In this document: piece by piece, positions 9,761-29,296 of the stretch
Layout of the letters: each line of letters opens with the position of its first letter
Position numbering within the stretch: position 1 is the stretch's first letter
NCBI RefSeq assembly: GCF_054482525.1
Contig: NZ_CM137006.1
Direction: 5' to 3' (one strand)
DNA: 64,000 nt
Program-made: the position numbers and the translations under genes
The notes under the pieces: generated by a model
Told to the model about the DNA's origin: nothing
Databases searched by the model: none
What the model saw: the letters and a program-made list of their open reading frames with translations, nothing else

Positions 9761-9951
9761 CTTTTGTTAACTCCTTTTTATAGATGCGGGAGGTAATTCC
9801 TCACCCCGGTGCCGATTTTCAGGCATCCTGATTTAACTTAGCACCCGCAACTTAACTACAGGAAAACAAAGAGATAAATGTCTAATCCTGATGCAAATCG
9901 AGCCGATTTTTTTATCTTTACGGACTTTTACCCGCCTGGTTTATTAATTTC

Positions 9952-9982
9952 TTGACCTTCCCCTTGCTGGAAGGTTTAACCT
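9952..9982 (+). promoter_or_regulatory. copA promoter with CueR (MerR-family) operator in 19-bp spacer
   Basis: TTGACC -35 followed by dyad CCTTCCCCTTGCTGGAAGG (9956-9974), then -10 region; matches the known PcopA/CueR box. Confidence 0.85.
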
Positions 9983-10022
9983 TTATCACAGCCAGTCAAA
10001 ACTGTCTTAAAAGGAGTGTTTT

Positions 10023-12527
10023 ATGTCACAAACTATCGACCTGACCCTGGACGGCCTGTCCTGCGGTCACTGCGTTAAACGCGTGAAAGAAAGTCTCGAA
10101 CAGCGCCCGGATGTTGAGCAGGCGGATGTGTCTGTCACTGAAGCGCACGTTACCGGGACTGCCAGTGCAGAACAGCTGATCGAAACCATCAAACAAGCGG
10201 GTTATGACGCATCTGTAAGCCACCCAAAGGCTAAACCGCTGGCGGAGTCATCAATCCCGTCGGAAGCACTGACAGCGGTTTCTGAGGCGCTTCCGGCAGC
10301 GACCGCCGATGACGATGACAGCCAGCAGTTGCTGCTGAGCGGCATGAGCTGCGCCAGCTGTGTCACCCGCGTACAAAATGCGCTGCAAAGCGTACCGGGC
10401 GTCACTCAGGCACGGGTAAACCTGGCGGAGCGTACTGCGCTGGTGATGGGCAGTGCCTCCCCACAAGATTTAGTGCAGGCGGTGGAAAAAGCGGGCTACG
10501 GCGCGGAAGCGATTGAAGATGACGCTAAACGCCGCGAGCGCCAGCAAGAAACCGCCGTCGCTACGATGAAGCGCTTCCGCTGGCAGGCAATTGTCGCACT
10601 GGCGGTGGGTATCCCGGTGATGGTCTGGGGGATGATCGGCGATAACATGATGGTCACCGCCGACAACCGCAGCCTGTGGTTGGTTATCGGCCTGATAACC
10701 CTGGCGGTAATGGTTTTCGCCGGCGGGCATTTTTACCGCAGCGCATGGAAAAGCCTGCTGAACGGTGCAGCGACGATGGATACGCTGGTGGCGCTAGGTA
10801 CTGGCGTGGCGTGGCTCTATTCGATGAGCGTCAACCTGTGGCCGCAGTGGTTCCCGATGGAAGCGCGACATCTTTATTACGAAGCCAGCGCGATGATTAT
10901 CGGTCTGATCAATCTCGGTCATATGCTGGAAGCGCGCGCACGTCAGCGTTCTTCAAAGGCGCTGGAGAAATTACTCGATTTAACCCCACCGACGGCGCGC
11001 CTGGTAACTGACGAAGGTGAAAAAAGCGTGCCGCTGGCAGATGTTCAGCCAGGTATGTTGCTGCGCCTGACGACCGGCGACCGTGTGCCGGTAGATGGTG
11101 AGATTACTCAAGGCGAAGCGTGGCTGGATGAAGCGATGCTGACGGGCGAACCTATCCCGCAGCAAAAAGGCGAAGGCGATAGCGTCCATGCCGGGACAGT
11201 GGTACAGGACGGCAGTGTGCTGTTTCGTGCCAGTGCGGTCGGCAGCCATACTACGCTGTCACGGATCATTCGCATGGTGCGACAGGCCCAGAGCAGCAAG
11301 CCTGAAATCGGCCAACTGGCGGATAAAATCTCCGCCGTGTTTGTGCCGGTAGTGGTAGTCATTGCGCTGATCAGTGCGGCAATCTGGTATTTCTTTGGTC
11401 CGGCACCGCAGATTGTCTATACCCTGGTGATTGCCACCACGGTGCTGATTATCGCCTGTCCGTGTGCGCTGGGACTGGCGACGCCGATGTCGATTATTTC
11501 GGGCGTCGGGCGGGCGGCTGAGTTTGGCGTGCTGGTGCGGGACGCCGACGCGCTGCAACGCGCCAGTACGCTCGACACCGTGGTGTTCGATAAAACCGGG
11601 ACGCTGACCGAAGGGAAGCCGCAGGTTGTCGCAGTGAAAACATTTGCTGATGTTGATGAAGCGCAAGCATTGCGTCTGGCGGCGGCGCTGGAGCAAGGTT
11701 CCAGCCACCCGCTGGCACGGGCGATCCTCGATAAAGCAGGTGATATGCAGCTACCGCAGGTCAACGGTTTCCGCACATTGCGCGGGCTGGGTGTGAGCGG
11801 TGAAGCTGAAGGTCATGCGGTATTGCTGGGCAATCAGGCGCTGTTAAATGACCAGCAAGTTGATACTAAAGCGATTGAGGCAGATATTTCAGCTCAGGCA
11901 TCGCAAGGGGCAACGCCTGTGCTGCTGGCGGTTGACGGGAAAGCGGTAGCCCTGCTGGCTGTACGCGATCCGTTGCGTAGTGATAGCGTGGCGGCGCTGC
12001 AACGCCTGCATAAAGCGGGATATCGTCTGGTGATGCTAACCGGGGATAACCCAACCACCGCCAATGCGATCGCCAAAGAAGCAGGGATTGATGAGGTGAT
12101 AGCCGGGGTGCTACCGGACGGTAAAGCCGAAGCGATCAAACGTCTGCAAAGTGAAGGACGTCAGGTGGCAATGGTGGGCGACGGCATTAACGACGCGCCA
12201 GCGCTGGCCCAGGCGGATGTCGGTATTGCGATGGGTGGCGGCAGTGATGTTGCCATTGAAACCGCGGCGATTACCCTGATGCGCCATAGCCTGATGGGTG
12301 TTGCAGATGCGCTCGCGATTTCCCGCGCAACGCTGCGCAATATGAAGCAGAACCTGCTCGGTGCGTTTATCTACAACAGCATTGGTATTCCGGTCGCCGC
12401 CGGTATTTTGTGGCCGTTCACTGGAACACTGCTTAACCCGGTGGTTGCCGGAGCGGCAATGGCGCTCTCGTCGATTACCGTAGTGAGTAACGCCAACCGA
12501 TTGCTGCGGTTTAAACCGAAGGAATAA
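10023..12527 (+). CDS. copA: Cu(I)-exporting P-type ATPase
   Basis: 834-aa ORF with two N-terminal CxxC metal-binding domains ([16 protein letters not shown]), CPC motif ([12 protein letters not shown]) and DKTGTLT phosphorylation motif. Confidence 0.97.
10223..10229 (+). other. copA: Programmed -1 ribosomal frameshift site in copA (slippery CCCAAAG) producing the short CopA(Z) metallochaperone
   Basis: C CCA AAG at codons 68-69; -1 frame reads CCC AAA GGC TAA, terminating immediately, as described for CopA(Z). Confidence 0.8.
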
Positions 12528-12698
12528 GTACATCATTACGGATGCACTGCTTTAGGGTGGCGCATCCGTTATAGGGAAATTATTCTACGCGACCTTTTTT
12601 GCACGCATACAAACACATCAAACAAGTCCCCAACTCCATTTGCGATTTGCGCCATCCCTCCCCGCGCGCTAGCATGATATTTCACAAAGGGAGGTCGT

Positions 12699-27364: not shown

Positions 27365-29296
27365 TCAAATGGGGCGGATACTTTCTTCATCCAGCTCCGC
27401 ATCGAAGAACCGACGCAGAGTCTGAATATTATTATCCGCAATAATGGACTCGCGCGCCTGCGCAAGTTTTTCTTCGTATATCGCCTGACGCCATTCCAGC
27501 GGCGTACGCACCGCGGGATTATCATCTTCAACGATAGTCAGTTCAACCGTTGAACCTTTTAACGTGCTCAACGCTTCAGCCAGTTTTTGCTGTGCGCCGC
27601 GGTTGTTCAAATGCCGCTGAGAGGAGCGCAAATGCAGACATACTGCGTTGTCGCTCTCCTCTTTCCAGGCATTTAAGGCCACCTGTTCGACCAGTTTTGG
27701 TAGCGAAAGTTGGCTCACCTGTGCCGCCCACGGGTCGCGCTCAATGGCTTCTGCCGCCAGCTTCGCCGCCAGTTCCGGCGTTTTTTCATGTTCCAGCGCT
27801 TTTTTTAGCGCCTTCGGCGTGGCGACCACTTCTTTTTGCTGCATCACTGGAGTGGTGGCCTTCCAGCGATACGCTTCTTTTTTGGCTGGCGCTTTTTCCA
27901 GCGCCGATGGCACCGGACGCGCCTGAACGCGATCGGTGACCGAAGCCAGTCTTTCCAGCGCAGCGTTATTCACCGGCCGCGCGCGGGTAGCGGCTGCCGG
28001 TTCACTCTTTTTTGCTTTGGTTGCTCCCTGCACGCGCTGCAACTGCTGGCGCGCCGCCAGCACCTGGCTGGTGGTTTCCGGGAGCGGTACAGTCGGTGCC
28101 TGCTGCGGCGCTGATTGCGGTTGCGGCGGCACCTGGGTTGGCGTCATTACTGCCGTTGGCGCGACGGGCGCAAAGGACTGGCGTGGCACTTCTGGCTCAG
28201 GCAGCGGCATACGCGGATGGAACGCCAGCGCGCGCAACAGCGTCATCTCAACGCCCATACGGCGGTCTGGCGCATACGGTAATTCTTTGCGACCAATCAA
28301 CAGCGTCTGATAGTAAAGCTGAATATCCGTCGGCGGTATGGTGCGCGCCAGTTCACGCATCCGCAGCTCGATGGCGGCCATATCGTTGCCAAGTGCAGCA
28401 GGCGAAAGTTGTACCATCGCAATACGATGCAACAGACCGAGCATTTCCACCAGCAACGCTTCCCACTCGATACCACGGGCAGCGGCTTCATTAATCAGCG
28501 CCATTACGCGCTCGCCGTTGGCCTCGACCATCGCTTCAACCAGCGACAGCGCCTGATCGTCGTCAAGCGTACCCAGCATCGCACTGACCGCCTGGGTTGA
28601 AACCTGGCCGTCACCGCTGGCAATCGCCTGGTCGGTCAGACTTAAGGCATCTCGCAGGCTGCCTTCAGCGGCGCGCGCCAGTAATTGCAACGCCCGCGGC
28701 TCGTGAGCGATATGTTCTTCGTTGAGGATGTGCTCAAGCTGATGGCGAATTTGCTCGACATCCAGCGCCTTGAGATGAAATTGCAAACAGCGTGACAAAA
28801 TCGTCACCGGCAATTTCTGTGGATCGGTCGTCGCCAGCAGAAACTTAACGTGCTCCGGCGGCTCTTCAAGGGTTTTTAACAGTGCGTTAAAGCTGTGGCG
28901 CGACAGCATATGCACTTCGTCGATCAGATAAACTTTGAAACGACCACGCGCCGGAGCGTACTGGACGTTATCCAGCAGGTCGCGAGTGTCTTCAACTTTA
29001 GTGCGCGAGGCGGCGTCGATTTCAATCAGATCGACAAAGCGCCCCTGCTCGATTTCACGACAGTTATCGCACACGCCGCACGGCGTCGCGGTAATGCCGG
29101 TTTCGCAGTTTAGTCCCTTCGCCAGCAGTCGGGCGATAGAGGTTTTTCCGACGCCACGGGTGCCGGAAAAAAGATAAGCATGATGAATACGCCCTAACGA
29201 CAAGCCGTTCGCCAGTGCGGTCAGCACATGTTCCTGGCCGACGACGTCAGCAAAGGTTTGTGGGCGCCATTTTCGGGCTAAGACCTGATAACTCAT
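27365..29296 (-). CDS. dnaX: DNA polymerase III subunits tau and gamma
   Basis: 643-aa ORF with AAA+ clamp-loader motifs (GTRGVGKTS). Confidence 0.97.
   Translation of the reverse strand: MSYQVLARKWRPQTFADVVGQEHVLTALANGLSLGRIHHAYLFSGTRGVGKTSIARLLAKGLNCETGITATPCGVCDNCREIEQGRFVDLIEIDAASRTKVEDTRDLLDNVQYAPARGRFKVYLIDEVHMLSRHSFNALLKTLEEPPEHVKFLLATTDPQKLPVTILSRCLQFHLKALDVEQIRHQLEHILNEEHIAHEPRALQLLARAAEGSLRDALSLTDQAIASGDGQVSTQAVSAMLGTLDDDQALSLVEAMVEANGERVMALINEAAARGIEWEALLVEMLGLLHRIAMVQLSPAALGNDMAAIELRMRELARTIPPTDIQLYYQTLLIGRKELPYAPDRRMGVEMTLLRALAFHPRMPLPEPEVPRQSFAPVAPTAVMTPTQVPPQPQSAPQQAPTVPLPETTSQVLAARQQLQRVQGATKAKKSEPAAATRARPVNNAALERLASVTDRVQARPVPSALEKAPAKKEAYRWKATTPVMQQKEVVATPKALKKALEHEKTPELAAKLAAEAIERDPWAAQVSQLSLPKLVEQVALNAWKEESDNAVCLHLRSSQRHLNNRGAQQKLAEALSTLKGSTVELTIVEDDNPAVRTPLEWRQAIYEEKLAQARESIIADNNIQTLRRFFDAELDEESIRPI
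27971..28013 (-). other. dnaX: dnaX programmed -1 frameshift signal (A AAA AAG heptamer plus downstream stem-loop) yielding gamma
   Basis: Minus strand reads GCA AAA AAG AGT GA with A-AAA-AAG at codons 429-430, then stem-loop CCGGCAGCCGCTACCCGCGCGCGGCCGG; -1 frame gives Lys-Lys-Glu-stop. Confidence 0.9.

Follow-up and report, generated by a model that had tools for sequence, protein, structure and literature searches.

The copA frameshift site of an Escherichia coli chromosome and comparative support for its predicted downstream pseudoknot

A site of -1 programmed frameshifting in the copA gene of Escherichia coli was reportedly described by Meydan et al. in 2017 (Mol Cell 65:207), and Drees et al. 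are said to have described, in 2017 as well (Mol Microbiol 106:635), the making of its product, CopA(Z), through frameshifting together with "differential transcript formation." A 2017 paper on the E. coli copA frameshift reportedly went further and proposed frameshifting in ATP7B, the human copper ATPase that is orthologous to CopA. These proposals have had different fates. Ribosome profiling flagged copA, where efficient -1 frameshifting gives a 70-aa putative chaperone (PMC5009743), and the truncated protein, CopA(Z), is described as a copper chaperone that protects the cell (PMC6771820). The stimulators of this event are the slippery sequence, a pseudoknot, and the nascent chain (PMC7558416), and in single-molecule assays the copA pseudoknot and two stem mutants of it acted as stimulators of -1 programmed ribosomal frameshifting (PRF), the copA pseudoknot being an efficient one (PMC6182138). 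E. coli copA frameshifting has since been upheld, whereas the claim for human ATP7B is unsupported by unfused reporters, ribosome profiling, or conservation analysis (PMC9548414). The frameshift in copA is, in other words, already known: it has been published, independently confirmed, and annotated in both the RefSeq record of K-12 and UniProt.

Two kinds of known systems lie close enough to this one to be instructive. The first is frameshifting itself, for which copA, dnaX, and prfB are the three well-characterised cases in E. coli (PMC10861913). Like copA, dnaX is a chromosomal gene with -1 PRF outside any mobile element, its shifted frame reaches a stop after one more codon, and the outcome is a functional protein encoded by the 5' portion of a longer ORF and shorter than its full product. 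In dnaX the signal includes an upstream Shine-Dalgarno-like element and a downstream stem-loop. In copA, by contrast, there is a downstream pseudoknot, and the nascent chain has an effect as well (PMC7558416). The second kind is the copper chaperones of the CopZ/Atox1 type, which resemble CopA(Z) in being soluble, in having about 70 aa, a single HMA domain, and a CxxC motif, and in having an ATPase of the CopA type as partner (PMC7558416). CopZ is encoded by a gene of its own (copZ in Enterococcus hirae and Bacillus subtilis), whereas CopA(Z) has no separate gene, recoding setting free the first domain of the pump to act in its stead (PMC10187127).

In this paper, we have tried to ask how one particular copy of copA compares with these systems, and what the sequence can add to a story that experiments have largely told. 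The copy lies in a stretch of 64,000 nucleotides of an E. coli chromosome, which we refer to as the window. Its zero-frame ORF (10023..12527, plus strand) encodes the 834-aa Cu(I)-exporting P-type ATPase, as judged from an ORF scan, from the translation, and from the match to the annotated copA of strain PCN033, to which a 601-base query (positions 9900-10500) is 100% identical. The same 601-base region was found in 5422 of 5426 complete E. coli genomes, each time annotated as copA, and the neighbourhood in PCN033 (ybaT, glsA, copA, ybaP, ybaK, and ushA) is the gene set of the E. coli copA region. The closest experimental reference is the K-12 site, which shares with the window the gene, the heptamer at codons 68-69, the GGC UAA that follows, and the downstream structure; the two are separated by strain-level differences only, and the cassette itself is unchanged, base for base, starting at the heptamer and continuing past the downstream structure. 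Upstream of the cassette there are a few synonymous changes, one added A in the 5' UTR (immediately ahead of the Shine-Dalgarno sequence), and the substitution I38V, which is the only residue at which the peptide preceding the shift site, and with it the 70-aa product, departs from that of K-12. The cassette is, by these measures, an ordinary one for E. coli.

Transcription of the gene would begin from a promoter that we read from the sequence at 9952..9982 (plus strand), with a -35 element TTGACC, a 19-nt spacer, and a -10 element TAACCT. The spacer contains the dyad CCTTCC-N7-GGAAGG, and the layout is kept in K-12, Citrobacter, and Enterobacter. We take it to be the copper-responsive layout of the MerR/CueR type, CueR being assigned from established knowledge. 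A sigma-70 scan did not detect this promoter, because its spacer is 19 nt long.

What does the frameshift site look like? Counted in codons from the ATG at 10023, copA reads CAC at codon 67 (10221-10223), CCA at codon 68 (10224-10226), AAG at codon 69 (10227-10229), and GCT at codon 70, so that the slippery heptamer C-CCA-AAG, of the form X_XXY_YYZ in the zero-frame register, occupies 10223..10229 on the plus strand. Read instead in the -1 frame from 10223, the same letters give CCC AAA GGC TAA, that is, P, K, G, and stop, with the glycine codon and the UAA at 10229..10234 and the stop itself at 10232-10234. At this heptamer tRNA-Pro and tRNA-Lys are able to re-pair on CCC and AAA. The initial annotation, made from the letters of the sequence, had claimed a C-CCA-AAG heptamer at codons 68-69 (within 10215-10235), a GGC TAA next in the -1 frame, and a shifted product of about 70 aa; the codon count places each of these where it was said to be, and residues 1-69 plus the added glycine make exactly 70. 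We found no sequence evidence that contradicts a frameshift cassette in copA.

The recoded CopA(Z) coding region would extend over 10023..10234 on the plus strand, with 10023..10229 read in frame 0 and 10229..10234 in frame -1. Within it lies the first HMA domain (Pfam PF00403; residues 8-62, at 10044..10208, plus strand), which aligns to profile positions 3-62 of 62 when the 70-aa product is compared with the family (E = 8e-14) and includes the copper-binding motif GLSCGHC, with its CxxC, at residues 11-17. The domain ends at residue 62 and the shift comes at codons 68-69, at the end of the first metal-binding domain. The predicted product is, therefore, exactly one complete HMA metal-binding domain. 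That this product is the reported chaperone CopA(Z), as had been proposed from the sequence, also holds up, because the literature, RefSeq, and UniProt agree on it. The RefSeq record of K-12 MG1655 contains a two-piece joined CDS in copA (511168..511379, YP_009518752.1, "soluble Cu(+) chaperone") whose 212 nt correspond exactly to window positions 10023..10234, and UniProt names the K-12 70-mer "Isoform Soluble copper chaperone CopA(Z)." The window's 70-mer, with I38V, had no entry in the protein collection that was searched. The feature was further said to be hidden in the ORF track, and it is: the PGAP annotation of PCN033 gives the full-length copA only.

That is, there is an annotation gap. 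PGAP and ORF tracks give only the 834-aa CopA, here and in nearly all E. coli genomes, and outside K-12 they omit a 70-aa chaperone that published work shows to be a real product of the gene. In biological terms, recoding in copA ties the making of a copper pump to that of its chaperone on one copper-induced mRNA.

Heptamers are short, and one might imagine that this one, together with the stop that follows it, is a product of chance, in which case whatever conservation surrounds it would reflect only the constraint of protein sequence and codon usage on an inter-domain linker. Some of the numbers in the window are congenial to such a view. CCCAAAG by itself is not over-represented (4 occurrences against the 8.5 expected from shuffles), and among the ORFs of at least 200 aa, which together have 17,420 codons, there are 26 in-frame heptamers of the form X_XXY_YYZ. 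The bare heptamer is, then, unremarkable; the heptamer with a prompt -1 stop is a rare configuration. Only 2 of the 26 have a -1 stop one codon past the heptamer, and these are copA, whose heptamer is the sole in-frame X_XXY_YYZ among its 834 codons, and dnaX, where the site is A-AAA-AAG at 28013-28007 on the minus strand, within a 643-aa ORF, and is an exact match to the dnaX frameshift sequence. Beyond the window, an explanation by chance is contradicted by published experiments (ribosome profiling and reporters) and by the annotation of the reference genome. The comparison of species, to which we come below, makes it harder still to hold, and we regard its probability as negligible.

As an aside on dnaX, a wholly mechanical filter (a heptamer followed promptly by a -1 stop), when passed over this window, yields two genes that the literature names as -1 cases, and nothing more (cf. 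PMC10861913).

The initial annotation had also proposed a prediction of the downstream mRNA pseudoknot, and we found a candidate of the H type. It starts 5 nt past the heptamer, in the range of about 5-9 nt that is usual for canonical -1 cassettes. Stem 1 would be formed by a 5' arm ACCGCUG (10235..10241, plus strand; extendable to 10233 in E. coli) and a 3' arm CAGCGGU (10273..10279, plus strand), the latter falling inside the loop of stem 2. Stem 2 would be formed by a 5' arm GUCGGAAGC (10259..10267, plus strand), which falls inside the loop of stem 1, and a 3' arm GCUUCCGGC (10289..10297, plus strand). Taken singly, stem 1 has 7 bp at about -10.5 kcal/mol, and stem 2 has 9 bp at about -14.2 kcal/mol. 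Folding was done with ViennaRNA, which treats nested structures only (no pseudoknots), and the minimum free energy (MFE) fold that it gives for 10230-10300 (71 nt) contains a 9-bp hairpin stem that is stem 2, both arms of which come from this fold. The nested MFE of the 71-nt segment is ordinary (z = -1.37). A search of Rfam left the region without any family, the best matches having E of about 4-10 and lying far under the gathering scores. Because the nested MFE is unremarkable and the thermodynamic argument weak, the case for the pseudoknot leans on the comparison of species.

For that comparison, we assembled copA genes from E. coli, Citrobacter, Enterobacter, Photorhabdus, Salmonella, Raoultella, Xenorhabdus, two species of Providencia, Proteus, Moellerella, Serratia, and Yersinia. 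A contig scan, dominated by matches to the universal P-type ATPase motif MVGDGIND, had yielded mostly distant CopA homologues and three from Enterobacterales, and it was supplemented with protein searches and contig look-ups. (In the first protein search with the E. coli query, near-identical Raoultella entries predominated.) An in-frame CCCAAA followed by A or G, with a -1 stop after one codon, was present in 12 of the 13 copA genes compared, E. coli duplicates being left out of the count. The heptamer is CCCAAAG, identically, in K-12, Citrobacter, Enterobacter, Salmonella, and Raoultella, and CCCAAAA in seven genes of Yersiniaceae and Morganellaceae, and the position of the -1 stop is constant in all 12 cassette genes, as UAA in Enterobacteriaceae and as UGA elsewhere. 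In Moellerella, copA has neither the heptamer nor the stems. Among the 12 distinct Enterobacterales sequences, 11 have both stems at equal distances, the exception being Xenorhabdus, with no stem 2 3' arm at the aligned place.

A small alignment of 12 related sequences (A2) allowed covariation to be examined. The cells of the predicted pseudoknot are paired in 91% of cases, and displacing the 3' partners by 1-3 columns lowers the figure to 18-48%, the structure having been derived from one of the 12 sequences. Four pairs have changed on both sides. One is in stem 1 (columns 13-60, G-C or A-U), and it switches between lineages; the compensatory changes in stem 2 affect three pairs, namely, columns 40-78 (G-C or A-U), 42-76 (C-G or U-A, the latter in Proteus, with CUGGAA...UUCCAG), and 47-71 (G-C, C-G, or U-A). 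The other six of the seven pairs of stem 1 are invariant in A2 and hence uninformative. Some of the conservation of the stems could, of course, be conservation of protein, since the stems lie within coding sequence. It is here that the notion of a chance site protected by a constrained linker meets its main difficulties, inasmuch as the changes in the stems are compensatory, and the AT-rich Proteus lineage retains arms that are rich in G+C.

A second line of evidence comes from synonymous sites. We compared five genera of Enterobacteriaceae, using residue pairs with the same amino acid, in 807 windows of 27 codons, and found a synonymous codon difference of 0.049 in codons 66-92 versus 0.43 over the whole gene. 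No other of the 807 windows in copA is as low. In linker codons 86-89, just 3' of stem 1, amino acids vary freely; no part of the protein is less conserved than the linker, and yet it has the lowest synonymous variation in the gene, which is not what constraint on the linker peptide alone would give. Covariation and synonymous constraint together support the view that the predicted pseudoknot has been maintained by evolution.

Within E. coli, the site is held with similar rigor. An 80-mer that includes the heptamer and the pseudoknot is identical in 5344 of 5422 genomes, and a 30-mer that includes the heptamer and the stop matches exactly at no fewer than 28 of its 30 bases in 5412 of the 5422, while the 601 nt around the site differ by more than 1% in 2072 genomes.

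Could the short protein arise in some other way? One might suppose that most CopA(Z) is made from a shortened copA transcript, or by processing, and that the RNA structure is there for the formation or the stability of that transcript. The title of Drees et al. does report a second, contributing route, and the downstream structure is both G+C-rich and conserved, as such a supposition would have it. A truncated transcript, however, needs no conserved heptamer in frame, and it needs no -1 stop that is fixed in position while switching from UAA to UGA. An intrinsic terminator at the pseudoknot was searched for, and none was found; the terminator-like sites within 9760-10500 are all outside the pseudoknot, and what follows stem 2 is AGCGACC, without a U run. 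A message lacking a stop would, moreover, be expected to yield products tagged by tmRNA instead of a 70-mer with a defined end at Gly. For these reasons, we consider a mainly transcript-derived CopA(Z) to be very improbable. It is possible that the truncated-transcript route is an addition to frameshifting; it is no substitute for it. We have also rejected transcriptional slippage, for it would have no more than 3 nt of A in a row to work on, and what has been conserved fits re-pairing of tRNAs.

The reading that we prefer is that the site in the window is, almost certainly, the cassette for programmed -1 ribosomal frameshifting in E. coli copA. The published evidence for function, taken with a cassette sequence identical to that of K-12, supports a cassette that is real and probably functional here as well. 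For the occurrence of the shift, its efficiency, its stimulation by pseudoknot and nascent chain, and the protection from copper that the product gives, we rely on the literature. What we add is support, from covariation and synonymous constraint, for one specific predicted pairing of the pseudoknot. The present data leave the published picture of copA unchanged, and the comparative data support its pseudoknot independently.

In that picture, some of the ribosomes on the copA message would arrive at C-CCA-AAG, their P site occupied by tRNA-Pro and their A site by tRNA-Lys. There the pseudoknot (10235-41 with 10273-79; 10259-67 with 10289-97), standing at the mRNA entrance, would oppose its own unwinding. 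Both tRNAs could then move back by one base, tRNA-Pro exchanging CCA for CCC and tRNA-Lys exchanging AAG for AAA, and the shifted ribosome would decode GGC and terminate at UAA, releasing the 70-residue first HMA domain as CopA(Z), the soluble chaperone for Cu(I). Unshifted ribosomes would go on to make the full 834-aa copper-exporting ATPase. A single mRNA, presumably under the control of CueR, would in this way provide pump and chaperone in a fixed ratio.

How far might this arrangement extend beyond E. coli? In a set of 77 distant CopA genes, 5 show a heptamer closely followed by a -1 stop where a metal-binding domain ends; the frequency is 0.24% of positions at domain ends versus 0.08% elsewhere, the cases being mostly runs of A in AT-rich genomes and the signal too weak to interpret. 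Closer to home, the comparative data suggest two- and three-domain versions of the product in related bacteria. Perhaps the cassette is an old module of the Enterobacterales that always stands before the last metal-binding domain of CopA, so that lineages with extra domains would release chaperones with several HMA domains; Moellerella would have lost the cassette, and loop 1 would be frozen beyond the needs of the stems. We find ourselves evenly divided about this proposal, taken as a whole. In the Enterobacterales genes compared here, the cassette does stand before the last metal-binding domain, and products of two and three domains are predicted for CopA proteins that have 3-4 HMA domains. 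If the proposal is true, these would be two-HMA products of ~139-140 aa in Photorhabdus, Xenorhabdus, Serratia, Yersinia, and Providencia rustigianii, and three-HMA products of ~207-210 aa in Providencia rettgeri and Proteus mirabilis.

Loop 1 (codons 74-79) deserves a last word. In Enterobacteriaceae its synonymous sites are frozen as well, and CUGGCGG could pair there with CCGUCGG to form an alternative hairpin. A freeze that goes beyond what the stems need hints at an additional RNA contact or at this alternative pairing.

The copA recoding cassette, which we define as a slippery heptamer, a -1 stop one codon later, and a downstream pseudoknot, is shared by the copA genes of Photorhabdus (L004, 1009-1079), Xenorhabdus, Providencia, Proteus, Serratia, and Yersinia (L085-L087 and L089-L091). 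Each of these genes carries CCCAAAA as its heptamer, with a -1 UGA one codon past it, and in each the pseudoknot of stems 1 and 2 is also present, excepting only the 3' arm of stem 2 in Xenorhabdus. The cassette is placed past the second of three HMA metal-binding domains (codons 137-138) or past the third of four (codons 205-208), and the predicted products would therefore contain two or three metal-binding domains, not one.

Two lineages depart from this pattern, each in its own way. In Xenorhabdus nematophila (L085), whose heptamer falls at codon 138, stem 1 is retained along with the heptamer itself and the -1 stop; because the linker is longer here, stem 2 lacks its 3' arm at the aligned position after the heptamer, and a weaker partner, CUCCGG, is found about 50 nt further downstream. 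The copA of Moellerella wisconsensis (L088) encodes 999 aa with four CxxC motifs, and the linker ahead of its last HMA domain has neither an in-frame slippery heptamer nor the stem 1 motif CCGCTG; this lineage appears to be without the recoding cassette. Its HMA domains 2 and 3 have near-identical peptide sequences and look like a recent tandem duplication.

How far beyond these genera might such sites extend? Among 77 distant copA-like genes, five (L007, L021, L028, L056, and L065) combine a slippery heptamer in the reading frame with a -1 stop no more than 5 codons on, in every case 45-62 codons past a CxxC motif, and at that distance a heptamer with a near -1 stop occurs at roughly three times the rate seen elsewhere in the N-terminal regions of those genes. 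Four of the five heptamers are A-rich runs; the cleanest case is L056, a single-HMA gene with GGGTTTT and a stop after 2 codons. The signal in these distant homologues is too weak to interpret.

Closer to home, loop 1 of the pseudoknot (10242-10258; codons 74-79 of copA) is almost unvarying at synonymous sites across five genera of Enterobacteriaceae (GAG TCA TCA ATC CCG), an invariance that exceeds what the two stems require. An alternative 7-bp hairpin, CUGGCGG (10239-10245) with CCGUCGG (10257-10263), is a competitor of both stems.

Within the long ORFs of the window, only one other in-frame slippery heptamer is met by an immediate -1 stop: the dnaX frameshift site A-AAA-AAG (28007-28013, within a match at 28002-28015, minus strand), at codons 429-430 of a 643-aa ORF. 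It is followed in the zero frame by GAG UGA, with the -1 stop one codon later.

Upstream of copA lies its promoter (9952-9982), whose 19-nt spacer holds the dyad CCTTCC-N7-GGAAGG; by its sequence, the layout is of the MerR/CueR type, and it is kept in Citrobacter and Enterobacter. A generic sigma-70 scan did not pick up this promoter because of the long spacer. In the 5' UTR (about 10010-10014), directly upstream of the Shine-Dalgarno sequence, the window has one A more than K-12 (TTAAAAGGAG versus TTAAAGGAG), and codon 38 (10134-10136) is GTC rather than the ATC of K-12, a change (I38V) that falls within the CopA(Z) product.

The copA 5' region has no match whatever in 4 of 5426 complete E. 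coli genomes, and at two places in the collection it is matched on plasmids, not chromosomes. Strain PCN033 is 100% identical to the window over the copA region (9900-10500), and its annotation table gives no gene between copA and ybaP, a gap of 171 nt in the window (12528-12698), whereas in K-12 the two genes are about 795 nt apart, with the regulator gene ybaQ between them. In PCN033, a gene for a TolC-family outer-membrane protein adjoins ybaT (in the window, upstream of ybaT, below about 7500); this difference from K-12 and that in ybaQ were read from annotation tables alone.
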